From a virus (lineage: Duplodnaviria > Caudoviricetes), in the IMG/VR virus record IMGVR_UViG_3300029705_000021: a DNA stretch of 64,000 nt, one strand, 5' to 3'. Both the position numbers and the translations under genes were made by a program. The notes under the pieces are model-generated. The model searched no databases, was not told where the DNA came from, and worked only from the letters and a program-made list of their open reading frames with translations. Below, one piece after another: positions 3,138 through 54,896 of the stretch; the first letter of the stretch is position 1; every line of letters begins with the position of its first letter.

Positions 3138-4145
3138 ATTACATTCTCCTTTCTTATCTCACTCTTGTTCTATCAAACTCATAAGCAGCACTTCCTTGAA
3201 GTAAAGTTTTCCAGCCACCATAAAATGTGATATGAACTTTAGGATTTCCGTTGATGTCCATTGTTATATTGTAACTTTCAATGTCCGAATAAGAATGACA
3301 AGTTGTTGGTACAAAATCATATAACATATTCATTTGCGCTCGCTCCTCTCTTAATCTTCCATAAAGTCTTCAACAGATATATTATACATATCTTCATAAA
3401 CCTTATAATGATTTATGATTTCCATATGCTCATCTCTTGTAAGGTCTGCAAGTCTTTGTACTTCGTTGCTATACATATTACAAACTCCACTTGCTTGAAC
3501 TTTTACAAATCTTTTGAATTTTTCTTTCGTTATCATAAATAATCTCCTTTCTTAATCCATCCATCTAATAGCCACACCATCTTCATCAATTTCACATCCG
3601 TAATACCCACAATCATCATCGTCTAATTCAACACTTTCGTGTTTATCATGGTATGGCACATGCTTTAATTTCTGTTCTGCTTCTTCATGATTTTCGGCTA
3701 ATAAATATCCATCTGCAATACATTTATATCCAACTGTTGCTCTCCAATGAAAAATTCTCATAACTGTTCTCCTTTCTTAAAGCTCTAAGTTCAATAGAGT
3801 ATCAATGATTTCTCTTGTGTCATATTCTGCTACACCACGCTCGTCTGCAAACACACTATCTTCATTATTTCGTACACTTTCTGCACAATCTTTTAAATAC
3901 TCAAGTTTATTTTTTAAGCGTTCATATTCTTTTTGTGATTTCAATATCTCAATCTGTTCTTCAAGATTTCCTACAATCTTTAAGATTTCTTTTCCACATT
4001 CAGTAAGAATTTTCTCTGCATAAGCAGGTGCATCTAAACTATCTCCAATTTGATTGATTAGCTCTACTATTCTATCTTTCATAGGTTTCAGCTCCTTTCC
4101 GTTAAAGAAAAGGCAGAGGTTAGTCTGCCTTTGGGGTTGGTTAAT

Positions 4146-10628: not shown

Positions 10629-11312
10629 TTAGTTCTCACTCTCTACTGCTTCAACTACTGCTTCAACATCTCCGTTGTACTCCTGCAAAGCCGAAAGATA
10701 TGCTTCACGTATCTCTGATATACGCTCTGCTCTCTTACGCTCTGCACGAAGCTTTCTCTTCTCAGCACGTTTCGCTTTCTGACGAGCCTTGATTTCTGCT
10801 CTCTTTGTAGCTTCCTTACGTGCCTCATTGATTTCTATGACCTGACTGTCTGCTGTCTTGAGTATCTTGTAGTACTTATCTGCACCACCACAAATATGTT
10901 TCATAATACATACTTCAAGACCTCTTGAGAAGTCATATTCATCTCCCATACAGCATTTTGCTTTCTGTATGTCTCCGTCCTCGAAGAATACAACCACTGT
11001 CTGCTTTTTATTATCTACCTTGTAATCTTTAATTTTAAATCTCATATTTTTGTCCTCCAATCTGATTTCTTTTGTTGTGTTTTCTGTTTCTGTTACACGC
11101 TCGGCTACCAAGCCCTCGAACATTTCTTCCACAAACCAGCCACCGTACTCTGCGACTTGATATGTATTATCATTCGGATCTACTTGTGTGATGGTTACGA
11201 TTTTATTTGGTAACTCTCTTTTTTTATAGTTGGGAAGACAACCAATAATACGGTATTCTTCCTTTATGTTTTTTACTACTCTTACAATATCTCCTATTTT
11301 GTATTTTGCCAT
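10629..11312 (-). CDS. Hypothetical phage protein with KOW-like N-terminus and basic coiled coil
   Basis: YKIGDIVRV start; TVVVFFEDG...KC..GDEYDF..GL motif. Confidence 0.65.
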   Translation of the reverse strand: MAKYKIGDIVRVVKNIKEEYRIIGCLPNYKKRELPNKIVTITQVDPNDNTYQVAEYGGWFVEEMFEGLVAERVTETENTTKEIRLEDKNMRFKIKDYKVDNKKQTVVVFFEDGDIQKAKCCMGDEYDFSRGLEVCIMKHICGGADKYYKILKTADSQVIEINEARKEATKRAEIKARQKAKRAEKRKLRAERKRAERISEIREAYLSALQEYNGDVEAVVEAVESEN

Positions 11313-12879
11313 TTTTTGTCCTCCTTAAATGTCAACTTTGTTGTTTCCCTTGTTGTCGTGTTACTTTGCTTGGTTTACAGTTACAAAAAAAGAGTTCCCT
11401 TATTCGAGAACTCTTTTTACTCTGCATTTCCAATATGCAGAAAATTTATATTCGTACTTACGCCTTGTCATTCTCATTTTATCACTTCCTTTCTACTTTG
11501 AAAATATAATGTCCCTTGCTCGTCTGTCTATCTCATATTCAGACTTACAATTATCAAATATGTGTCTGTCTACCTTGAAGCCTAATTGCTTCAAAAGGTC
11601 TACCTTTTTCTCTGCATAGGTTCTTCCTTTTGCACCGATCATATCTGTATCATATGTAATTCCCATTTTCCTTTCACCTACCTTTCATTGTTCTCCTCGT
11701 TCTCTGCATACATAATTCCCTTGTGGTCTAAATACTCCCAAAGGATTATATATTCTCCCTTGTCATCTGTTAAGACTTCAAAGGTTTCTTGACGGTTGTG
11801 TGTTCCGTCTAATTCCACATCTGTACAATCACAGGTTATCTCCGTTTCTGTTCTTGATACAATTTCGTAGTACATTTGACCACTCGTAAAGATGTCTGTA
11901 CTACAGAATTTATCACCGACTTGGAATTTATTCATAGGCTTTTCCCAAAAGATTTCGTCCTTATGTGCTCTCACATAGTCGGTGATTTCCGTTGATGTGC
12001 CAACTAACCAACCTTGAGAAAGCGCAAGCCAATTCTCCCCTGTCTCTGGATTTCGGAAACAGATTCCGTGTCCAAAGTTACACAACGGATGGAAATCGGC
12101 TATTATTTTATCAGCAATGAGCAGTTCCTTTGGCTTCTCATCTGTCCAGTTTTCCCACTGGCATATGTGCCAACACTTCTCTGCATCAAAAGCTTTCATT
12201 TCTATTTGCCCATAGTATGTTGGGCAATCTTCTCCCTTTGGGAAAACATAAAAGCTAATTTGCATTCCGTTACACCTCCTATAAATCTATTTCCCACCAC
12301 TCAATCGTATATGTGTTTCCGTTGTCTAACATATAACAGAATCCATATAGCGATGTGGAAATTACTGTTGCGTTGTGGCTTTTACACCACTTGCGAGCAT
12401 AATAGAGCTGTTCCTCTTCTGAATGAATTACATTCATTGTTACACCTCCTACTCTGCCACACCGACAATTTTCCAATCATCGGTAAACTTACAGATGATT
12501 TCCGTTCCTACTTCGTATCCGTCTCCGTAGAAAGAGTATAACTCTCCCTTGTAGTTGACTGTTACGAGGTCTCCGTTAATTTCTGTTACCTCACAAGTAC
12601 GTTCTGTTACGTACTCGTAATGGAGACCATTGTTACTTTCACTTGCTATTGCATATCTGCTTTCTGTTGCACTTGCAGATACAATTCCTGCTCCACATAA
12701 CACCACAATAAAAAGAAACATTACAGCAATGATAATATTACTCATAATGTTTCCCTTGTTTCCCTTGTTACGCTCTTTAATCGAAGCAGAGTACGCAGCT
12801 GCTCTTGCGTTCCTCTCTGTTAATTCATTCTTTTTCTGCACCATTCGGGCAAAGGTTAAATCTAACTTCTTTTCCATAG

Positions 12880-13386
12880 TTAGTCCTCCTTTCCTAACAT
12901 TTCTTCTATCACACTTTTTGCCTGTGCCATTGCTTCAGCACTATAACCAACACATCCTCCGTTGCACCCGTCATAAGTACCATCGGCATAGCAGCACTCT
13001 GCATATTTGTAGACTGCTTTCTTAAGGGCTTCTTTGTCAATGCCTGCGTCTACTCTGCCAAGGCTCTTGCACCCAATGATGCGTCCGTTCTCGTCACGAA
13101 CAGACTCATTTGGAATAAACACATCATCTCTTCCCTTGCAACGCTGTGCTACAAGACTAGAAACAATATATACAACTCCCTCTTGTGGCTCTGGTAAGTT
13201 CTCTACTTCACCAAACTTAGTTTCTGTTACAGGAATACCTACACAGATACCTGTCACTATAGTTTCCGTTGTTACTCTCGCAATTGTGCCTGATGGCTCA
13301 ACTGTAAGAGCTATATCTCCATTGCTATCTACAAATGTGATAGCGTGTGGTGTTAAATTAACCACCATTTCTGTTGTCTTCTTCAT
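12880..13386 (-). CDS. Conserved phage protein (NLTPH family)
   Basis: VNLTPHAI...PSGTIARV...NLPEPQEGVVYIVSSLVA...VRDENGRIIGC; SD before ATG at 13386. Confidence 0.7.
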   Translation of the reverse strand: MKKTTEMVVNLTPHAITFVDSNGDIALTVEPSGTIARVTTETIVTGICVGIPVTETKFGEVENLPEPQEGVVYIVSSLVAQRCKGRDDVFIPNESVRDENGRIIGCKSLGRVDAGIDKEALKKAVYKYAECCYADGTYDGCNGGCVGYSAEAMAQAKSVIEEMLGKED

Positions 13387-34461: not shown

Positions 34462-37095
34462 ATGAGTAAATATGGCTTAAAAATAAAGAATTTTCAAGCA
34501 GGTTCTTTATTTGGATATAATAATGGAACTAGAGATAGACTTGATAGTACCGATGCAATGCTTACTAATAGTTTGTTTAGTGATTTTATTATTCAAAACG
34601 GATTAAATGTTTGGAAAGGTGAATCTACCAGAGATATTATTTGCATAGAATTTGATTATGGTACTAGAGATTATCAAGGAGAACTCGATAATTTTAACAA
34701 TATAATTAAAAGTATAAATAAAGACGAAAAAATGTCTTTAGAAGAGAAAGAAGAACGAATTGAGAAAATTAATTTTTTGATAAATAGAGCAAACGAAAAT
34801 CAATGTAGATATATCAAAAAATCGGCACATGAATTAAGAGAACTGTTTTATACCGAAGGAGTAGATATTAATTATAAAACCTACAATAAAAAAGGCGAAG
34901 TTATTAAAGAAGATTTAATTCATTATAAAATGTTATATAGAACTCCAGGTAAAGCAAAAAAAGGTTCTTGTATGTTTATTAATGAACAATTATATGATAC
35001 TGCAAGAAATTTTCTTTATATGGGAATACAGTTGTCTGAAAAAAATGCGCCAATTGTTGAGATAGGTGCGTATTCTTCTCTTATTACTTCTACTATCGTT
35101 GGAAAAATACAAATTAGATCAGAGCAAATATTAGTAGTTAATGATGTAGATTCGTTTTATAAAACCAATATCATTAGTATTGAAACTGATGAAAGTAAGC
35201 GTTGTATTTCAAAACCAATTGATGATTATGAGTTAAAGAACACATTGTTTGATGGACAAGCTTTAATTGATACTTCTATCTTTCCAGAATGGGGTGATGG
35301 TTATGTTTTACTAAGACATCATATGTGTAAGATGGCTGCTTTTCATACAAATATAGAATTGTTTATGAGAGAGCACTTTAAAGAAAATTATGATACTGCA
35401 TATATTAATGATATGTGGGGCAATCTCGTTAAGGTTTCGGATATTAAATTAATTACAACGGATAATGCAATGAAATGGCTAAAATTTGATAAATCATTTG
35501 AATATTGGTCTGATTGGGTTAGACAAAATGATTGTATGTTTGGTGTTGTAAAAACTGCGCATCAGAGTAAACTTGGAGAAGTTCAACGTATGAGTTATCA
35601 AATGATTAATGCATTAGATATGGATATCATGCCTCAAGTTACACAATGTAGTATTGATTATATAAATGCATTAAAAACAAACGATGATGTATTTTTGAAT
35701 TATCTTAGAGACAACCAAAACTTTTCTAATGATTTTGAAGTACTAATTGCATTAGTTGAACAAGATAGAGAGTTTTTACGAAGTGAGTATTTTAGACATC
35801 GTAAAGAATATATCATTAAAGCTTATGTTATGAATTTTAAAAATGGAAAGATTATTCAAAACGCAGATAATCTCGTTATTGTTGGATCTCCATATGCAAT
35901 GTTATTACATTCAGTAGGTAAAGATCCTTTAAATGATGAAACTTTTAAAACAGAAGATGGGGCAATTCAATGTTTTACTCAAAGATTTAATGATGGGGAA
36001 TATCTTGCTGAATTTAGAAGTCCATTTAATTCTAAAAATAATATGGGATATTTACATAATGTATATAGTGATAAATTACAAACGTATTTTAATTTTGGAA
36101 AACAAATTATTGCAATTAATATGATAAATACGGATTTCCAAGACAGAAATAACGGATCAGACCAGGATAGCGACAGCCTGTATGTTACTAACCAAAAAGA
36201 GATTGTTGAGTATGCAAAATTTTGCTATTTAAACTATCCAACAATTGTTAATAATATTCCAAAAGAGAAAAATTCATATGATAATACATTATTAAATTTT
36301 GCAAACATAGATAATAATTTATCTGACGCTCAAGAAGCGATTGGTACATCGAGTAATTTGGCTCAAATTGATTTAACATATACTTATAATGCAAAAACAG
36401 ATGAAGATAAAAAGAAGTATGAAAAATATGTATGTATTTTATCAGTTTTAGCACAAGTGGCAATTGATAATGCAAAGCGCAGATTTGATATTGATCTTGT
36501 TAAAGAAATTGACTTGATAAAAAAAGATATGAATATCAAAGAAAATGGGTTTCCTGCATTTTGGGGAATTGTAAAAAAAGATTTTAATAAAAGAAGAATT
36601 AATAAAAACTTGATATGCCCTATGAATTATATATTTGATATTCAAATTGATAAGTATAAAAGCAAGGAATCTACTCTTCCTATGAGTGATTTTTTTGTAA
36701 ATTATCCGATGGAAGAACATAGACGTAAATCAAGAAAGGTTGAAGAATTAATTCAAAAATACTCTCTTGATTTATATACAAAATATCAGAAACCTAAAGA
36801 TTGTGGATATATGGATGACGAAGACGAAGAAGATTCTTATTTACTATTGCGTTCAGATTTTGACGATTTAATTAATGATATAAATCAAATATATATATCT
36901 AAAAATTATTTAGGTTTAATGTCTTGGTTAATTAATCGTGCTTTTCTTATTGGGGCTGGTGCAAGAAGAAATACAAAAGAAATACAATCAACATTAAATA
37001 ATAATAAATCTATTTTATTAAAAACTTTGTATACAATAAATCCTGACGCATTGTTAAAATGTTTTGCAAAAAATATAGAAAAAGTGGACACTTAA
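34462..37095 (+). CDS. yonO: YonO-like single-subunit DNA-dependent RNA polymerase (RdRP-related double-psi barrel)
   Basis: RTPGKAKKG, DGQALID, RSP, GSDQDSD metal motif, AIDNAK; SPbeta-like synteny with HU next. Confidence 0.85.
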   Translation: MSKYGLKIKNFQAGSLFGYNNGTRDRLDSTDAMLTNSLFSDFIIQNGLNVWKGESTRDIICIEFDYGTRDYQGELDNFNNIIKSINKDEKMSLEEKEERIEKINFLINRANENQCRYIKKSAHELRELFYTEGVDINYKTYNKKGEVIKEDLIHYKMLYRTPGKAKKGSCMFINEQLYDTARNFLYMGIQLSEKNAPIVEIGAYSSLITSTIVGKIQIRSEQILVVNDVDSFYKTNIISIETDESKRCISKPIDDYELKNTLFDGQALIDTSIFPEWGDGYVLLRHHMCKMAAFHTNIELFMREHFKENYDTAYINDMWGNLVKVSDIKLITTDNAMKWLKFDKSFEYWSDWVRQNDCMFGVVKTAHQSKLGEVQRMSYQMINALDMDIMPQVTQCSIDYINALKTNDDVFLNYLRDNQNFSNDFEVLIALVEQDREFLRSEYFRHRKEYIIKAYVMNFKNGKIIQNADNLVIVGSPYAMLLHSVGKDPLNDETFKTEDGAIQCFTQRFNDGEYLAEFRSPFNSKNNMGYLHNVYSDKLQTYFNFGKQIIAINMINTDFQDRNNGSDQDSDSLYVTNQKEIVEYAKFCYLNYPTIVNNIPKEKNSYDNTLLNFANIDNNLSDAQEAIGTSSNLAQIDLTYTYNAKTDEDKKKYEKYVCILSVLAQVAIDNAKRRFDIDLVKEIDLIKKDMNIKENGFPAFWGIVKKDFNKRRINKNLICPMNYIFDIQIDKYKSKESTLPMSDFFVNYPMEEHRRKSRKVEELIQKYSLDLYTKYQKPKDCGYMDDEDEEDSYLLLRSDFDDLINDINQIYISKNYLGLMSWLINRAFLIGAGARRNTKEIQSTLNNNKSILLKTLYTINPDALLKCFAKNIEKVDT

Positions 37096-46513: not shown

Positions 46514-46667
46514 TTAAATTATAGTTTGCTTATGATTTTTATAGTTTGAGCACATAGGTATGTGCTCAAACTTGTATATATTGTTTAATTTGAGTGCTTA
46601 GGTATGTACAGAATCGTGCATATTCCTAAGTACTCAACAGTTATTTATTATTTAAACTATAATTTAA
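46514..46667. repeat. Element A: 14-bp terminal inverted repeat enclosing GxGTRCWTARGxA motif hairpins
   Basis: TTAAATTATAGTTT/AAACTATAATTTAA; motifs at 46548, 46592 and inverted at 46623. Confidence 0.8.
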
Positions 46668-46679
46668 TAGTTTTGCTTA

Positions 46680-46708
46680 TTGACATATTTTTACATTTAA
46701 TATATATT
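46680..46708 (+). promoter_or_regulatory. sigmaA-type promoter of the recombinase, with a motif copy near +1
   Basis: TTGACA-17bp-TATATT, then TAGTGCTTAAGAT at 46711. Confidence 0.65.
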
Positions 46709-46752
46709 ATTAGTGCTTAAGATTAACTAATATTATAAAGAGAGGTAAGAAT

Positions 46753-47796
46753 ATGAGTAAGAAGAATGAATTAATTAATATAATTTTACATAGTGCAATG
46801 AGAAGTTTTGATAAAGATGCAATTGTGGAATTAAAAAAGATACTTAGAATTTCTCTTTATGATTATTCGGTAGAAAAAATAGGGACAACAGATATTGCTA
46901 TTGGAAATTACGAAACCACTCAAGGATTATTGGAATATTTTACTGTATGTAAATTAAGCTCTGGTAGATCGCATAAAACAATTAGACAGTATATACTCGT
47001 GGCGAACCAGTTGTGCGGTTTGGTACACAAGAATTTGGGTGATATAACGAGCGAAGATGTAATTTATTTCTTAGCGAAATACCCTACTACGAAATCTCCA
47101 CATGTAAGTCAGTGTACTATGGATTCAAAGAGAAGATACTTGTCTTCTATCTTTGGTTTGTTAAAGAAACACAAAAAGATTTCAGAGAATCCGATGGATA
47201 TGGTTGAGAGTTTGAAATATCCCTATAAGGTAAAAGAACAATTTACTGATCAAGAAATACATAAATTATATGAAAGCATTAACGATTGCAAAAATGATAT
47301 TATTAAACATAGAAATAATGCCATACTTAGTTTATGTCTTGATACTGGTTGTCGTGTTTCAGAATTAACTAATATTAGTATCAGAGATTGTAATTTTCAG
47401 AGCAATGAGGTTAAAGTGCAAGGAAAAGGCAATAAGGAAAGAATTGTATTTTTCTCTAAATCAACAAAAGATAAAATTATTGACTATTTAAAACTTAGAA
47501 ATATTCAGAACTATAATACTAATATTCCATTGTTTATGGATATCTGCAATAAGAACAGACTTAAAGCTTCGGGTGTCAGAAGTATGCTTAAAAGAATTGG
47601 TTTAGCGAGTGGAGTAAACAATGTTCACCCACATAGACTGAGACGTACTTGCGCAACAAGCCTTGTTGTAAAAGGTATACCGATTGATACAGTTGCTAGA
47701 TACTTAGGTCATGCTAATTTAGATATCGTGCAGAAATACGTCTGTAATTCGAATGAAAGAATGAAAAATGAGTTACAAAGAGTTGGTATAGGTTAA
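46753..47796 (+). CDS. Tyrosine recombinase (XerC/D-like)
   Basis: DTGCRVSE (R), GKGNKER (K), HPHRLRR (HxxR), LGHAN (H), VQKY (Y). Confidence 0.93.
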   Translation: MSKKNELINIILHSAMRSFDKDAIVELKKILRISLYDYSVEKIGTTDIAIGNYETTQGLLEYFTVCKLSSGRSHKTIRQYILVANQLCGLVHKNLGDITSEDVIYFLAKYPTTKSPHVSQCTMDSKRRYLSSIFGLLKKHKKISENPMDMVESLKYPYKVKEQFTDQEIHKLYESINDCKNDIIKHRNNAILSLCLDTGCRVSELTNISIRDCNFQSNEVKVQGKGNKERIVFFSKSTKDKIIDYLKLRNIQNYNTNIPLFMDICNKNRLKASGVRSMLKRIGLASGVNNVHPHRLRRTCATSLVVKGIPIDTVARYLGHANLDIVQKYVCNSNERMKNELQRVGIG

Positions 47797-47821
47797 CTAA
47801 ACTAACTAATTTTTGATATAT

Positions 47822-47995
47822 TAAACTCGAATATACTTAATAATTTTTATTGCGTACATAAGTATATACATAAAAAATTGTGTACTTAAGGATGTACACA
47901 AGTATTGAGTGCTTAGGTAAACACTCTATATTGTGTGCTTAGGAATGCTGCCAAACATTTATAGTACGATATTTTATTAATTAAATTCGAGTTTA
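47822..47995. repeat. Element B: 11-bp terminal inverted repeat enclosing four motif copies at a 26-28 bp period
   Basis: TAAACTCGAAT/ATTCGAGTTTA; motifs at 47852, 47880, 47907 and 47933. Confidence 0.8.
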
Positions 47996-48084
47996 GTAAA
48001 CGAATCTGTTAACCAACTTCTTTTGTGTAGAGTTGGTTTTATTATAAAAATCAACTAAATAAAAAAAGAAAGTGAGGTAGAGCA

Positions 48085-48735
48085 ATGTATACAATTTTAG
48101 TTAAAGATACTAATGAATTATCTATAACAGTAAAAGAACGAATTATGCAAAGAAGTAAACTTATTGATAATTTGCATTTTTTAGTTAGCCCTTTATATAA
48201 GGACGAAATTGATATGACTGGCTTTACGGTAATGATGGAATATATATTACCTATAAGTAAAAAATATCGTAGTGAAATATTAACATTATCTGAAGAGTTA
48301 TATAAAGAAAAATTAGAATATAAACTTCCTTTTGATACAAAACTTACAGAAGAAGCTGGAAGTATTGAAGTACAATTATCTTTTATTAAATTAGATTTAG
48401 ACGAAGAGGGTAATAGTGTTCAATATGTTAGAAAGACAAGCCCTGCGACTATTACAATTGTACCAATTAGTGCATGGAGTGATATTATTCCTGATGAGGT
48501 ATTAAGTCCTATTGATGCTAAAATGTTAGAGATACAAGGTCAAATTAAAGCATTAGAAGAATTATCTAATATAACTGCTACTACAAAGGCAGATAATATT
48601 GTCCTTGATGAAGGAACTCATGAATTGTATTTGACATCTAATGGAGAAGCGATTGGAAATAAAATTGATATGGATACACTTGGTGAAGCAATTGTAGAAA
48701 ATACTGAAAATGGTCTTGTTCAAATGATAATATAG
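48085..48735 (+). CDS. Structural/fibre-associated protein (BppU N-terminal-like)
   Basis: IMQRSKLIDNLHFL...LPFDTKLTEEAGSIEVQLSF...VRKTSP.TI.I beta-sandwich pattern. Confidence 0.5.
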   Translation: MYTILVKDTNELSITVKERIMQRSKLIDNLHFLVSPLYKDEIDMTGFTVMMEYILPISKKYRSEILTLSEELYKEKLEYKLPFDTKLTEEAGSIEVQLSFIKLDLDEEGNSVQYVRKTSPATITIVPISAWSDIIPDEVLSPIDAKMLEIQGQIKALEELSNITATTKADNIVLDEGTHELYLTSNGEAIGNKIDMDTLGEAIVENTENGLVQMII

Positions 48736-48745
48736 GGAGGTAATT

Positions 48746-49582
48746 ATGTCACAAAATAGAGCGAAATTTGGTTATCTTTCTTATGATGATATGCTGCAAA
48801 AAATTACTGATGGCGTATTAGACCAACATGACATAGTATTTACTAAAGATACAAAAGAAACATATATTATTTCTCCCGATGCTGAACCTATAGCTTTAAA
48901 AAGTAAAGTTTATGTATATAATTCTATGACAGAAGCAATTAGAGAAATTAATAGAAATACTGATACTTATATTGGTCAAATTGTTAGTATTTTAGACGGA
49001 GATACATATCGAGGTTATATTGTTAATCAAAATACAAAATATAGAACTACTTCTTATACAGTAAGTCCTTTAACAGATACTTCTTCTATTGATTATAATA
49101 CATTGGGTAATAAACCAATTATAAATCTTATTGGTACTTTAGATGAACCAATAACTTTATCAGAGTTATCTAATGGTACATATTCTATTATTGGTCAATA
49201 CAAAGTTAAGGATTCTGAAGAAACAATATATCTTAATGCTTCTCCGACAGTGGTTATTATAGAAAAAGATAACAATAAAACATTTATAAAAAAAATTTCA
49301 TCGTCAGAAATTATAGATTATGTAATAACTGATGATATTGTTGAGAAAAAAGCATATGCAACAGATAAATTTCTTGAAGAATATGGATATGCTACTACTT
49401 CTTATGTTGATAATAAAATTGCAGTTCTTGATTTTATTACCAAAGATGAAGTGTCTATATATGTAGACAATTTAGTAAATGAAATACTTGATAATATATT
49501 GGATTCTAAAATTGATAAAAAGATTGACGAAAAAATTCAGCCTGTTGGGGAAGAATATGTTGTTAGTCTTTTTTCTTTATAG
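48746..49582 (+). CDS. Putative fibre/structural protein
   Basis: IDYNTLGNKPIIN and YATTSYVDNKI fibre-type motifs. Confidence 0.5.
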   Translation: MSQNRAKFGYLSYDDMLQKITDGVLDQHDIVFTKDTKETYIISPDAEPIALKSKVYVYNSMTEAIREINRNTDTYIGQIVSILDGDTYRGYIVNQNTKYRTTSYTVSPLTDTSSIDYNTLGNKPIINLIGTLDEPITLSELSNGTYSIIGQYKVKDSEETIYLNASPTVVIIEKDNNKTFIKKISSSEIIDYVITDDIVEKKAYATDKFLEEYGYATTSYVDNKIAVLDFITKDEVSIYVDNLVNEILDNILDSKIDKKIDEKIQPVGEEYVVSLFSL

Positions 49583-49656
49583 AAAATATATGATACATAG
49601 TTAAAAACACCAAATTATGGTGTTTAAAAATAAAAAAAAGAAAGGAATATATAATT

Positions 49657-50907
49657 ATGGCAAAATTAAAAGTTTTTACATTGGATAACCTTACTCTCTA
49701 TGATGGATTGATTAAAGGTTATGTTGACAAAGCTGCTGCTGCAGTTGATGCAAAGTCAATAAAGACTGTTGCAATTACAGGTAACACACTTAATTTTTAT
49801 AATGTTTCAGAACCTGTAGGTGAAACTGCTCCTGTTTATTCTATTGAACTTCCACAGACAGATTTAACAGACGTTCTTACAAGACTTTCTGCTCTTGAAG
49901 ATGGTAAGGCTGATAAGACTGAAGTTTACACAAAAGGTGAAGTTTACACAAAAGGTGAAGTTGATGCTGCTATTCAGGATGCTGAATATGATGATACTCA
50001 GATTAAGGCTGATATTAAAGCAAATGCTGACGCTATTACAGCAATTAACGCTGCTGATACAGGTATTCTTGCTCAGGCAAAGACTTATGCTGATGGCAAA
50101 GATGACGCTATCGCAGCTGCTAAGAAGGCTGGAGATGACGCTCAGGCTGACGTAGATGCTCTTGAAGCAAAGATTGGTACTGTTGAAGACGGAAAAACTG
50201 TAATGGGTATTATTGCAGACATTCAGGCTAATGCTTACGATGATACTCAGGTTAAAGCTGATATTAAGAAAAATGCTGATGATATTGCTGCTATTAATAA
50301 TGCAGACACAGGTATTTTAGCTCAGTCTAAAGGATACACAGATACAACTGTGGCACAGGCAGTAAAGACTGTTAAAGAAAGTCTTGCTTCTGCTCTTACA
50401 TATAAAGGTCAGAAGGCTACTGAAGATGAACTTCCAACAGAAGGTAATGTATGTGGTGATGTATGGAATGTAACTACAACAGATAAGGGTACTTCTGCTG
50501 AATTCGTATGGGTAGTTGATAATGCTGAAACTGGAGCAGGTCATTGGGAAGAATTAGGTACAGCTCTTGATCTTTCTGCTTATGCTGAAAAGACACAGGT
50601 TGCTACTGATATTGCTACAGCTAAGGGCGAAGCTGTTTCTGAAGCTAAAGCATACGCTGATGGATTGGCTTCGAATTATGACGCTGCAGGTGCTGCTAGT
50701 GATGCACTTACAGAAGCTAAAGCATACACAGATACAGAAGTTGCAAAGGCAAATGATGCAGTAACTGCTCTTACAAATGGTCAGGTTAAGACAAATACTG
50801 ATGCTATCGCTAAGAATGCACAGGATATCGCTGGTTTACAGTCAACTCTTGGCGAAGGTGTTGAAGCTATTACAGAAGCTGAAATTAACGCTTTATTTAA
50901 TGCTTAA
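49657..50907 (+). CDS. Ala-rich coiled-coil fibre protein with internal repeats
   Basis: EVYTKG x2, duplicated YDDTQ.KADIK.NAD.I.AIN.ADTGILAQ.K, AKAYAD repeats, LTYKG...LP.EGN..GDVWNV domain; codon usage resembles the capsid gene. Confidence 0.65.
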   Translation: MAKLKVFTLDNLTLYDGLIKGYVDKAAAAVDAKSIKTVAITGNTLNFYNVSEPVGETAPVYSIELPQTDLTDVLTRLSALEDGKADKTEVYTKGEVYTKGEVDAAIQDAEYDDTQIKADIKANADAITAINAADTGILAQAKTYADGKDDAIAAAKKAGDDAQADVDALEAKIGTVEDGKTVMGIIADIQANAYDDTQVKADIKKNADDIAAINNADTGILAQSKGYTDTTVAQAVKTVKESLASALTYKGQKATEDELPTEGNVCGDVWNVTTTDKGTSAEFVWVVDNAETGAGHWEELGTALDLSAYAEKTQVATDIATAKGEAVSEAKAYADGLASNYDAAGAASDALTEAKAYTDTEVAKANDAVTALTNGQVKTNTDAIAKNAQDIAGLQSTLGEGVEAITEAEINALFNA

Positions 50908-50932
50908 TTAAAATAAAATTGAATACATGATT

Positions 50933-50966
50933 GCAAAGAGCCTTGTGAAATATCAAGGCTCTTTGT
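50933..50966 (+). terminator. Intrinsic terminator-like hairpin
   Basis: CAAAGAGCCTTG/CAAGGCTCTTTG stem after the fibre gene. Confidence 0.65.
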
Positions 50967-50981
50967 ATTAATATTGGTTGA

Positions 50982-51136
50982 TAAATAAATGTTTAGTGAT
51001 CTTATGTATTTACCTAAGCACTCTTAAAACAGGTATTTTTTTATATTTATATTTTTGATTATGTGCTTACCTAAGCCCACAATCCTTTTAAAATACAATA
51101 AAATTTTAATTTATAAATTCACTAAACATTTATTTA
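50982..51136. repeat. Element C: 18-bp terminal inverted repeat enclosing two motif copies in the opposite orientation
   Basis: TAAATAAATGTTTAGTGA/TCACTAAACATTTATTTA; TACCTAAGCACTC at 51011 and TACCTAAGCCCAC at 51068. Confidence 0.8.
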
Positions 51137-51151
51137 ACTAATTAAATTTAT

Positions 51152-51224
51152 GCCTCGATGGCTCAATTGGCAGAGCAGCTGATTTGTAATCAGCAGGTTA
51201 TCGGTTCAAGTCCGATTCGAGGCT
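51152..51224 (+). tRNA. tRNA-Thr(TGT)
   Basis: GCCTCGA/TCGAGGC acceptor, GCTGA-TTTGTAA-TCAGC, GTTCAAG. Confidence 0.93.
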
Positions 51225-51300: not shown

Positions 51301-52605
51301 ATGGCAACTGTAAAAAAAATGAGTACGGATGTCAAAATGACTCCTGCTCAAATGAAAAAAGAAATAGAAAAATTAAAAGAAGAAAATGAAAAGCTTAGAA
51401 ATAGTTCTCGTTGTCTTATATGTGACACATTAAAAAAAAAGGACGATTTTTATGTTAGTACAGACCCAATGAATAAAGCAGGGCATACTCAAATATGTAA
51501 AACTTGTGCTCGTAAATTGGCATTGAGAACAGATAAAAATGGCAATGAACATGAATGTAATATGGATTCAATTTGTTTAAGCCTTAAATACATGAATAAA
51601 CCATTTTTAAATGATTTATGGGATTCTAGTATACAAGAATCAGAAAATTTAGTAGCAGGAAAAGTAAAACATAGTCCAGCAACCGCTTATTTTAAGAATG
51701 TCGCAATGGGACAATATAATGGTCTTACCTATTTTGACAGTGACATGTTCAAAGAAAAAGTTGTTTATGAAGATGAAAAAACACCTCAAATGATTGTCGA
51801 AGAACATGCAGGTCAAGATACTTATGATGATTTTATTAAGAATAAAAAAGATGTTATTAGATTATTAAGTTATGACCCATTTGAACAAGAAGCTGTAAGT
51901 GATCAACCATTTTTATATTCTCAGTTAATAGGATTACTTGATGCTGGTGGAGATGAGAATGATGATATGATGAGAAATGCTTCTTGTATTTCAATTGTAA
52001 GAAGTTTCTTGCAATCTTCTAAGATAGATAATGCCATAGCAAATCTTATGGCAGATATTAAAAATATAGATAAAAATTCTGCTACTATTAAATCACTTCA
52101 AGATAGCAAATCAAAAATTACAAGTACTATTACGAATTTGGCAGCAGAAAGTTGTATTTCATTGAAAAATAATAAAAATGCTAAGAAAGGTGAAAATACT
52201 TGGACTGGTAAAATTAAAAAGATTAAAGATTTAAATCTTAGAGATGGACAAGTTAATGGATTTGATATAGCAACTTGCAAGGGTATGCAACAAGTACAGG
52301 AAATCAGTGATGCTTCTATTATGAAGCAGTTGGCACTTGATGAATCAGATTGGTCAGATATGGTTGCAGAAATGAGAAAAGATAATCAAGCTTTAAGAAA
52401 AGAAAGAGATTCTTATAAAGAAATTAATAGAATTCTTTTACAAGAGAATTTAGATCTTAAGGATTATTTTGAAGATAATAATATAAATCCAGATATTGAA
52501 TATAGAAATTTAAAAGAATTGTACTCTATATTTGCGAGTGACGATGAAATAGAAACAACTGTTGAGGAGGTAGATGAAGATGAATCAGATACTACTTCCG
52601 TATAA
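51301..52605 (+). CDS. Zn-binding protein upstream of the terminase (candidate small-terminase-like)
   Basis: CLIC...CKTC; overlaps the start of the large terminase. Confidence 0.5.
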   Translation: MATVKKMSTDVKMTPAQMKKEIEKLKEENEKLRNSSRCLICDTLKKKDDFYVSTDPMNKAGHTQICKTCARKLALRTDKNGNEHECNMDSICLSLKYMNKPFLNDLWDSSIQESENLVAGKVKHSPATAYFKNVAMGQYNGLTYFDSDMFKEKVVYEDEKTPQMIVEEHAGQDTYDDFIKNKKDVIRLLSYDPFEQEAVSDQPFLYSQLIGLLDAGGDENDDMMRNASCISIVRSFLQSSKIDNAIANLMADIKNIDKNSATIKSLQDSKSKITSTITNLAAESCISLKNNKNAKKGENTWTGKIKKIKDLNLRDGQVNGFDIATCKGMQQVQEISDASIMKQLALDESDWSDMVAEMRKDNQALRKERDSYKEINRILLQENLDLKDYFEDNNINPDIEYRNLKELYSIFASDDEIETTVEEVDEDESDTTSV

Positions 52606-54896
52606 TAATTATCAATTAGATTATGATAAAGATTTCTATCAAGACTATGGTATTTTTGTAAAACCAATTAATTATCCATTATCCAGTAGAAAAATAGAAG
52701 CTTTATTGGAGATTGCAAATATGCAAAAGTATTTTCAATGTAACCCTGTTAAAATGATAGACATTATGTTCAACATAGAACTTCTTGATAGCCAAGCACT
52801 TGCAGTACAAAAAACATGGATTTGTCCTAATGCACTTTTGGTGTGTACTCGTGGTTGGGGTAAATCTACTGTTATTGATTTATCTCTCATGGCAAAAGGA
52901 ATGTGCTTCGCAAATTATTGGAGCTATATAGCAAGTGGTTCTGGTTCTCAGGCTGAACAAACTTTTACTACGTTAGAAAGACTTGCTAATGATAATATTG
53001 ATACATTTTCAGGGTCTACTGGAATTGTGTTCAAAAACGAAGTAGAAATTAAAAACGCTGCAGGTGATGGATTTAGTCATAGCAGTAATGGATTTAACTA
53101 TTCTTTATATAATGGTTCAATGACACAAACATTAAATTCAAATATAGACGCTAAAAGAGGTGAACGATTGCCTCACTAATTAGAAATAATTAGAGAAAAA
53201 TAAGTGCGAAAGAAAACTGGAAGACTGAAATGTTAATCAGAATGGAAGGCTAAATGCAAAAGTTTAGTCACATGCAGAGCATAGAGTTTGAAACTAATTA
53301 ATATTAGAATATAATAACTCCACGAGTTCGCACCATCTAAACGTAAAGTCGTAGATGAAAAGGTATGCCGAGCTTATAGGAATAAAACTATAAGAACTAT
53401 AAGATAAAAAACTTGTAGGATAACAATTGTATCGTGGTAGCGTAGTTTTTGATGAAAGTGGTTTCTTATCAGAAGAAATGATGAACGTATATAGTGCGTT
53501 TGCTGTAGTTAATAGAGATTTGAAAACTGGTAAAGATGCAAGTGGAAAATCAATTGATCCAATTAGACAAAGATGTTTCCCACCTGACATGCCATATCAG
53601 AAAATATATATCAGTTCTGCTTCTAGTACTGATACAAAATTCTTTGCATTATATAAAGATTTTGCAAAGAAACAAATTATGGGAGACCCAGATTATTGTG
53701 TTTTACATATTGATTGCGAGTTGGCATTTAAACCAACAATGCATGGAGAATTAATTACTCCTCTTCTCTCTCGTTCTACTGTTCAATCTGAAATGAGAAC
53801 AAATCCTGAAAAGGCAAGACGAGAATATTATTGTCAATTTACTACTGAAGCAGGTGAAAATGCAATTATTAAAAGAGGTGTTATTACTAGAAATGAAGAA
53901 ATTAGAAAACCACTTCTTTATAATGATACTGGTGATAAGAAATTTGTTATATGTTATGACCCAGCTAGAAGCCGAGACAATAGTGTTATTTTGGTTGGTG
54001 AAATATATGATCACGAAGAAGTTGATGGTTCTATTGATAAAAGAATGAGACTTGTAAACTGTATTAACTTGATTGACGTTGGTAAAAAGATTAAATCTCC
54101 TATGCAAACACCTGATCAGATTGAATATCTTAAAAAAGTTATTCTTGATTATAATGGTGGTGCTGATGCTTATGAAAACATTGTTGGAATATATATTGAT
54201 GCTGGTTCTGGTGGTGGAGGCGTTAACATTGCAGACTATTTAATGCAAGATTGGGTAGATAAAGCAGGAATTAAACATAGAGGTTTAATTGACAAAGAAT
54301 ATTCTGCTGAATATGTTAAAAAGTTTCCTAATGCAGTTGACAAAGTTAGGTTAATATCTCCTTCAGGCTATAAATCAGAAATGTACGAAGCAATGATAGA
54401 ATTAATGAATCAAGATAAAATTAGCTTTACAGCGCAATATGACAGAAAAGGTATCTTAACTGTATTTGATGTTGATGAAGAAAAGTTGGCAAAAGAGAAA
54501 GAAAAGATTATAAATAAATTAAAGAAACAGAAACTTTCTAATGAAGAGTTTAGTAATAAACTTGACGAAGAGTTAAAGCAAGTTCAATCTGTAAAAACTA
54601 AAACAATTAAACTTGATTGGCAAGATGAAATTGCTTTAGTTAATATGGACGCATTAAAAGAAGAGCTTGTCAATATGGTTCGTAAAAAGAGAGAATCTGG
54701 AAAAGACTCTTTCGAATTGACTGCAGAAAAAGCAAATAAAATGCATGATGATAGAGCTTATACTTGTTGTTTAGCTTCATATGCTCTTATGTGTGAAAGA
54801 AGAAAGAATATTACTTCTAGAAAGAGAAAACCTACAACAACCAACCTAGCAGATCTCTTACCAATCAAAACACCAAAGAGATCTTCTTACTTTTAA
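52574..54896 (+). CDS. terL: Terminase large subunit, two exons (52574-53161 and 53430-54896), ~684 aa
   Basis: Walker A TRGWGKS in exon 1; junction AKRG|YRGSVVFDESG (Walker B); nuclease motifs YDPARSRD, IDAG, HDDRAY. Confidence 0.9.
53162..53429 (+). mobile_element. Group I intron, 268 nt, no ORF
   Basis: P1 GAGGT/GCCTC with U-G at the 5' splice site, P10 ACGAT/ATCGT, P3 GTGCGAA/TTCGCAC, P7 GCATA/TATGC, terminal G; removal restores the frame. Confidence 0.92.

Follow-up and report, generated by a model that had tools for sequence, protein, structure and literature searches.

Among the described systems of short invertible DNA, the closest to the one reported here is that of the Cdi switches of Clostridioides difficile, several intergenic invertible segments of 154–230 bp that occur with differing proportions of the two orientations (Sekulovic et al. 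2018, PMC5903667) and on several of which one tyrosine recombinase, RecV, acts (PMC5903667; PMC9286219); one of them, the pdcB switch of 174 bp, holds an invertible promoter (PMC9286219). The present analysis concerns a window of 64,000 nucleotides from the virus record IMGVR_UViG_3300029705_000021—a large gut phage of the Caudoviricetes with a genome of 161,663 bp, the contig being estimated as 91% complete—and within that window a module in which a tyrosine recombinase gene is accompanied by three miniature, gene-free invertible elements, designated A, B, and C. The module works like an inverton: short segments bounded by inverted repeats are found in both orientations between fixed flanks, and are linked to a catalytically intact site-specific recombinase, with which they co-occur at 16 of 16 loci while being absent from the controls. 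The likeness to the Cdi switches lies in the short intergenic format, in the probable Bacillota setting, and in the apparent use of one tyrosine recombinase for several segments; but whereas the Cdi switches are chromosomal, dispersed, each upstream of a different operon, and furnished with mostly unrelated repeats, the phage elements are clustered at the recombinase gene, have one core in common whose spacer can be exchanged, enclose palindromic sites in phase, and may follow one another directly without an intervening gene.

The fimS switch of Escherichia coli, acted upon by the 200-aa recombinases FimB and FimE, is likewise short invertible non-coding DNA with internal sites, in that instance for accessory proteins; fimS, however, is single, and its promoter is proven, which is not the case here. 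In Bacteroides fragilis, as cited in PMC5903667, the serine master recombinase Mpi governs at least 13 scattered promoter regions. There, too, one enzyme serves many regions, but the enzyme is of the serine type, the loci are scattered, and the promoters are proven. The TPMM report lists sixteen putative viral invertons on gut viral contigs, reversible inversions that are poorly understood, and in its accessible part describes no recombinase family, site structure, or arrays for those candidates (PMC13501310). In the literature searched, outside of which lay most subscription papers, we found no phage module of spacer-keyed, helically phased, gene-free tandem switches; the switching itself is well supported, and its architecture appears to be undescribed. 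We consider it quite probable that the module constitutes an array of independent switches, keyed by their spacers and driven by the adjoining recombinase, which judgment excludes what the switches control.

Three elements that invert on themselves

The elements, the recombinase gene, and its promoter occupy the following positions in the window:
46514–46667, no strand: invertible element A, 150 bp core to core, spacer key TTATAG, 14-bp perfect inverted repeat; cores at 46515–46528 and 46653–46666; three internal 20-bp sites, at 46548, 46592, and 46616
46680–46708, plus strand: sigma-A-type promoter of the recombinase gene, TTGACA-17-TATATT, outside A; the best-scoring candidate, by consensus match only
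46753–47796, plus strand: tyrosine recombinase of 347 aa, with the catalytic set R201, K225, H294, R297, H320, and Y329 intact
47822–47995, no strand: invertible element B, 172 bp core to core, spacer key CTCGAA, 11-bp perfect inverted repeat; cores at 47822–47835 and 47982–47995; four internal 20-bp sites, at 47852, 47880, 47907, and 47933
50982–51136, no strand: invertible element C, 153 bp core to core, spacer key TAAATG, 18-bp perfect inverted repeat; cores at 50982–50995 and 51123–51136; two internal 20-bp sites, at 51004 and 51061

Each element is a separate gene-free invertible segment of 150–172 bp, and not the end of a fibre cassette. The original prediction, made from the DNA letters, had placed the three elements as brackets around the recombinase gene and a set of fibre-like genes; its coordinates and perfect repeats were exact, as were the 15-mer of B that recurs inverted at 51009–51023 in C and the 28/27/26-bp spacing of the motif in B, and its proposal of recombinase-linked switching on multi-site substrates holds for the system but not for the moving unit, since each element inverts on itself. 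The closing repeats are TAAA-N6-TTTA sites with one spacer at both ends of an element, inverted, and a different spacer in each element. A detector calling paired TAAA-N6-TTTA sites with a matching spacer and at least two internal motifs returned, for the 161.7-kb genome, exactly A, B, and C.

The flipping was read from assembled contigs of four sequencing runs (X1–X4) and of relatives. In run X4, which contains a near-identical phage, a contig of 1997 bp spans positions 49125–50981 and then enters C on the opposite strand, while other contigs of that run cross A and each B junction in the orientation of the window, so that C is flipped there and A and B are not. Run X1 yielded a contig corresponding exactly to 50982–51136 (C alone) and run X2 one corresponding exactly to 47822–47995 (B alone), as expected where both orientations coexist; contigs of X2 and X3 start at 46654, and one of X2 at 46514, both positions lying within the bounds of A. 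The contigs equal to C and B showed about twice the depth of their flanks (11.1 versus about 6.6, and 10 versus 5.5–6.5, respectively), which doubling may be noise in short contigs. Some weak joints that skipped sequence were also seen in the four runs, but, having sides of at most 30 bases and not mapping to the elements, were rejected.

In the related locus L039 (recombinase identity 87%) all three interiors, those of A, B, and C, are reversed, with identities of 0.73–0.80 in the reversed against 0.50–0.62 in the forward alignment. Among assemblies with identical recombinases, five element pairs from four recombinase lineages can be interconverted by an exact flip; their 40-bp flanks are identical, and the crossover falls within 14–15 bp. 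The pairs are two of the A type (L071/L072 and L081/L082) and three of the B type (L062/L063, L076/L079, and L081/L082); L069/L070 and L042/L043 are further flipped pairs. In L062/L063, L069/L070, and L076/L079 the neighbouring elements are unflipped, thus indicating that the flips are independent. Both orientations were seen in at least six lineages. In addition, 20 of the top 100 recombinase homologues lie on contigs of 1130–1270 bp, approximately the distance between the A and B cores. The assemblies accordingly show each segment in both orientations, with the crossover confined to a 14–15-bp window around TAAA-N6-TTTA and with each segment flipping independently.

Up to five elements occur per locus among relatives, including arrays of four in tandem without an intervening gene. 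Their order is regular—A precedes the recombinase promoter, B directly follows the stop codon, a D type comes next, and C types stand before the tRNA-Thr and yonG—and each type has conserved asymmetric blocks of its own beyond the motif, with type and order maintained at recombinase identities of 53–87%. The D-type elements (e.g., L039 13395–13565 and L065 9271–9440), of which the present phage has none, contain near one end a second conserved palindrome resembling TATTCT-N4-AGAATA, a candidate site for a different protein.

Site grammar and the adjoining recombinase

The 13-bp motif to which the original prediction assigned 2–4 copies per element has seven strict matches in the 161,663-bp genome, where shuffles lead one to expect 0.42, and all seven are within A–C; the confinement claimed for the window therefore extends to the whole genome, and the copy numbers are right for A and B (2 and 4) but not for C, with one strict copy. 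The motif is better described as a 20-bp pseudo-palindrome, GTGTRC-WTAGGAAT-GYACAC, with three copies in A, four in B, and two in C, and restricted to those elements except for two isolated hits. Because each element flips and the motif is nearly symmetric, the direct and inverted relations formerly read between the elements are uninformative. One isolated, high-scoring 20-bp motif (score 18) that belongs to no element is present at G000:C1 14845–14865 (in L090). A motif-like site at 46713, at the recombinase promoter, scored below threshold and had no clear counterpart in relatives, so that autorepression is unsupported.

Cre/loxP and XerH/XerS recombine at core sites that need a single enzyme, with symmetric arms around an asymmetric 6-bp spacer whose identity decides the pairing. 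The present cores are built in the Cre/Xer manner, having symmetric arms around an asymmetric spacer within the usual 6–8 bp and identical in the two partners. A consensus of about 10 bp is common to the inner and outer arms, in keeping with one enzyme that binds all four. The spacers are of the form Y-N4-R, beginning with C or T and ending with A or G; partner spacers are identical in every element called (the detector requires the match), and within a genome the spacers differ by at least two positions in nine of ten arrays and by one in the remaining array. Here A, B, and C differ among themselves at two or more of the six positions, and B differs from C at four or more in either orientation. 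Tyrosine recombination requires spacer identity, so that no core should recombine except with its own partner; as the partners are inverted, the product would be an inversion. In all likelihood, then, the recombinase would bind the symmetric arms as in Cre/lox or XerH, with matching 6-bp spacers restricting each core to its own partner, and the differences between spacers would act like keys, barring any deletion or inversion that joins one element to another. Orthogonal sets of lox spacers are a laboratory construct for Cre, whereas the sets here occur naturally, evolve in matched pairs, and enclose only 140–190 bp; more than 25 natural keys were found across the module family.

The element lengths cluster at 141–142, 150–153, 158–160, 169–172, 179–182, and 190 bp. 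These steps correspond to a period of some 10 bp (R 0.71, with 0 of 20,000 simulations under a uniform model), the significance of which is overstated by kinship among the elements. Counted from the element end, the first internal motif starts near 21, 31, 42, or 53 bp, and the commonest distance from motif to motif is 25 bp. Mismatches between the motif arms are G–T as often as A–C (89 versus 89), and the polarity of the motif is reversed between orthologous positions. The 10-bp phasing, the equality of the two mismatches, and the reversals of polarity together suggest that the internal motifs are double-stranded protein sites on a set helical face, and we consider it somewhat probable that these would be bound by a dimeric protein that bends the short loop into a synapse. 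The only constant gene in the module is that of the recombinase; the binder may be that enzyme, a host factor, or a distant phage protein.

The recombinase itself belongs to PF00589 (E 8e-34) and falls below the cut-off of every named NCBIfam family; its R-K-H-R-H-Y residues are invariant in 64 homologues, its predicted fold resembles those of XerA, XerH, Cre, and lambda Int, and its N-terminal 52 residues are modelled with low pLDDT. About 100 homologues of at least 52% identity form a distinct clade; no cultured phage has a close homologue (best identity 36%); one GTDB homologue match is a 4-kb contig in a metagenome-assembled genome of Bacilli. The contexts of relatives came from ENA, Logan, metagenome, and GTDB contigs. 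Elements were present at all 16 clade loci sampled, and were found neither in 581 kb around yonG at 38 loci lacking the recombinase gene nor beside recombinase homologues of 44% identity or less. The promoter at 46680–46708 is identical in a model with A flipped, and relatives have TTGACA in the corresponding position. Neither the recombinase alone nor its alignment retrieved a close locus from IMG/VR, and four DNA-pattern scans of IMG/VR for elements gave two chance matches inside genes and no elements, neither extending nor contradicting the link. We hold with high confidence that the adjoining recombinase would be the enzyme driving the flips. In L039 a 553-aa protein with a faint NUMOD1 match, a probable homing endonuclease, is inserted after the recombinase (11030–13110), and beyond that insert, just before element B, is a copy of the 3' end of the recombinase gene.

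A recombinase fold paired with a repeated DNA element is also known from SPbeta, where MrpR has lost all but three of its seven catalytic residues and occupies sites throughout the prophage (Kohm et al. 2023, PMC10516654). The present recombinase shares that pairing and an SPbeta-type setting. Its R, K, H, R, H, and Y are, however, all retained, and the motif, rather than being a dispersed operator, is confined to the elements.

Genomic setting

The neighbouring features relevant to what follows are these:
48085–50907, plus strand: three structural-looking passenger genes of 216, 278, and 416 aa, found in L039 and this phage only
50932–50967, plus strand: terminator-like hairpin just upstream of C, by pattern match only
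51152–51224, plus strand: tRNA-Thr(TGT), 15 bp downstream of C
51301–52605, plus strand: YonG-like gene that leads into the genes for terminase, portal, and head; a candidate downstream target

Relatives carry the Pfam families YonJ, YonG, YonD, and YonB around the locus, and by synteny with SPbeta-like phages the module would lie inside a predicted late operon, between yonJ and yonG. The product of 51301–52605 matches Bacillus SPbeta-like phages weakly; its orthologue in L039, 87% identical, carries Pfam YonG_N, and the terminase large-subunit and portal genes follow. In every locus where the downstream DNA was read the module is upstream of the yonG-like and terminase genes, and in most of those relatives a tRNA-Thr-like gene comes after the array. 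No conserved promoter was evident upstream of yonG in relatives without the module. Upstream of the module are a gene for an HU protein and one for an 877-aa protein (34462–37095), a putative single-subunit RNA polymerase that has a DxDxD motif and appears to resemble phage proteins of the YonO kind; the motif reads DQDSD, the usual form being DxDGD.

The three passenger genes form neither an invertible cassette nor a constant part of the module. For two of the genes that the original prediction called fibre-like there are leads, and leads only: the product of 49657–50907 resembles clusters with phage-fibre repeats (score 0.91), and that of 48085–48735 resembles BppU_N-like clusters (0.92), the family being present on 34% of cluster members; the third, 48746–49582, had no match in Pfam, PHROG, or NCBIfam. 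The trio is oriented alike here and in L039, and other loci have different genes, or none, between B and C. The search of the genome and relatives that the original prediction proposed found such elements at the loci of the recombinase clade and not at the related loci lacking the gene; the cargo between elements did vary, but the interval from yonJ to yonG varies in phages without the module as well.

Several observations concern the surrounding DNA. A 14-bp element, ACTAATTAATTTTA, lies at 51137–51150 and at 20 other places of the genome (21 copies with at most one mismatch), often adjoining TTGACA promoters or ribosome-binding sites, and is carried by relatives too; its distribution—the distribution alone, not the sequence—is reminiscent of the repeated SPbeta element bound by MrpR. 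A gap of some 250 bp (53179–53427) splits the terminase large subunit; most relatives lack it, several have gaps of 0.27–1.6 kb at the same place, and the gap, which had no Rfam match, is probably an intron or an intron remnant. Within a tRNA cluster, 39839–39875 matches the Rfam abiF RNA slightly over the gathering score. Upstream of yonG in L004 and L020 ARAGORN calls tRNA-Pyl genes with an amber anticodon, possibly suppressor tRNAs; and in L069 (13828–17074) a DDE transposase, a helix-turn-helix regulator, and a PemK-family gene break the head cluster right after the terminase gene.

Readout of orientation and rival explanations

The module as we propose it would pair a single tyrosine recombinase gene with as many as five miniature invertible segments that contain no gene, three of which are present in this phage. 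The least certain step is the output. Orientation might be translated into transcription through a one-way promoter, a terminator, or a roadblock, with A acting on the recombinase gene, and B and C on the tRNA-Thr, terminase, and head genes or antisense into the recombinase; we regard such a transcriptional readout as possible, if somewhat short of probable. In one direction the last motif is followed by a −10-like hexamer in 18 of 46 elements (7 expected), and in the other in 3 of 46 (4 expected), in a test that was designed after the data had been seen and on elements related by descent; terminator-like hairpins, by pattern match, are present on one strand in A and B. The array would have eight heritable states here and up to 32 in relatives. 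A still more tentative reading, which we judge on balance unlikely, is that of a multi-bit viral DNA memory, in which one recombinase would write, within the predicted late operon, three to five insulated, spacer-keyed bits whose combination would grade or time the expression of the recombinase and packaging genes—with antisense or termination feedback on the recombinase as a part of it—and so hedge among the 8–32 heritable states.

A number of points weigh against the switch array or its readout. The flips come from assembled contigs and not from raw reads, at a depth of about 6 for the near-identical strain, and the four runs may belong to one campaign, one of them perhaps being the source sample. 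The genome encodes two more tyrosine recombinases (G000:C1 11616–12644 and 156229–157428, both on the minus strand, 334 and 396 aa), near neither of which were elements found; there was no match to the resolvase-type serine recombinase family. The number and type of elements differ between close relatives; the length period and the hexamer counts are subject to the kinship already mentioned, and the latter to their post hoc design. Flipping neither creates nor destroys a strong sigma-A promoter, and every element type is commonly found in either orientation, which argues against an essential on/off late promoter.

The most serious competitor to the switch array, though an improbable one, is that the elements flip without regulatory output, as miniature passengers or selfish units kept and sometimes moved by the recombinase, after the manner of the REPINs that RAYT maintains and moves. 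Close relatives do indeed differ by the gain or loss of whole elements: L081 (7030–7250) has a B that is cleanly missing from L071 (7025–7060), where no core is left; the element at L042 11245–11394 is missing from L043; and L087 retains an orphan core at 3760–3800. The lack of a strong orientation bias and the four-element arrays with no gene between fit such passengers as well. Inversion by itself, however, creates no copies; the elements have not spread, being exactly three in 161.7 kb; and their order and types, with the type-specific blocks, are conserved across recombinase identities of 53–87%.

Less probable again is a role of the cores and internal sites in replicon maintenance—multimer resolution, partition, or the start of packaging—with inversion as a side reaction. 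A lox-like core becomes a direct repeat in a genome dimer and could resolve it, and the constant position of the module ahead of the yonG-like and terminase genes fits such a role; but a single site suffices for resolution, the 38 related yonG loci without elements or motif clusters indicate that packaging does not need them, and several differently keyed inverted pairs are left without explanation.

We find very improbable the proposals that the elements are sponge RNAs of the CsrB type or folded single-stranded substrates like attC, both raised in the original prediction and neither borne out. Element A does fold far better than its shuffles on both strands (z about −7), C moderately, and B weakly, on the plus strand; covariation between the motif arms is slightly over chance (0.58 versus 0.52), and the commonest motif centre includes AGGA. 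The many GGA loops on one strand that mark CsrB and RsmZ are nevertheless missing: GGA occurs in 61 of 131 motif copies, there is no strand asymmetry, and the elements have no Rfam match. The equal G–T and A–C counts in the arms and the reversal of polarity at orthologous positions argue equally against a folded single strand, and what might pass for a closing stem is the core of a recombination site, in which the spacer can be exchanged. As for integrons, the recombinase scores 56 bits against the IntI model TIGR02249, with a cut-off of 265, and in place of attC sites—direct repeats with AAC/GTT, one per cassette—we found gene-free tandems in either orientation with TAAA-N6-TTTA ends. An RNA role that works in both orientations is a further alternative.

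The inversion of the fibre genes between B and C, or the excision of the A–B or A–C segment, as originally predicted, is scarcely likely. Mu Gin, P1 Cin, and the Rci shufflons do have an invertase beside their substrates, as here, but rearrange coding segments through sites with a shared crossover, whereas the present elements are insulated from one another by their differing spacers and no gene is inverted. The passenger genes between B or D-type and C-type elements vary among phages, which would suit a cassette; yet so does the yonJ–yonG interval where the module is absent. The keys differ at two or more of six positions among A, B, and C and at four or more between B and C, those of the latter two being incompatible; no joint of either kind was present among the contigs of the four runs (contigs drop rare variants); and the interval genes are co-oriented with the recombinase at every locus fetched, including L039, in which A, B, and C are flipped. 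Finally, that the two orientations are assembly or library artefacts of the inverted repeats is hardly credible. The data are admittedly contigs, and those of L052 and L053 fold back at their ends at the elements; but in long contigs of differing sample and assembler origin the principal path has the flipped form, at least six lineages display both states, and repeats of 11–18 bp are not long enough to mislead an assembler working with words of at least 31 letters.

The inversions known from phages mostly exchange coding segments of tail fibres. The present module defines a family of non-coding phage switches with a site grammar, a candidate enzyme, and flipping in many lineages, in a field—viral invertons in gut metagenomes—that is described as poorly understood (PMC13501310). 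The orthogonality by spacer key that was engineered into lox sites would thus occur in nature, and one enzyme with its natural keys and switches of 140–190 bp would make a compact toolkit. The 10-bp ladder of lengths may offer a clean model for synapsis of short loops, and the module as a whole a testable handle on the heritable heterogeneity of SPbeta-like temperate phages.

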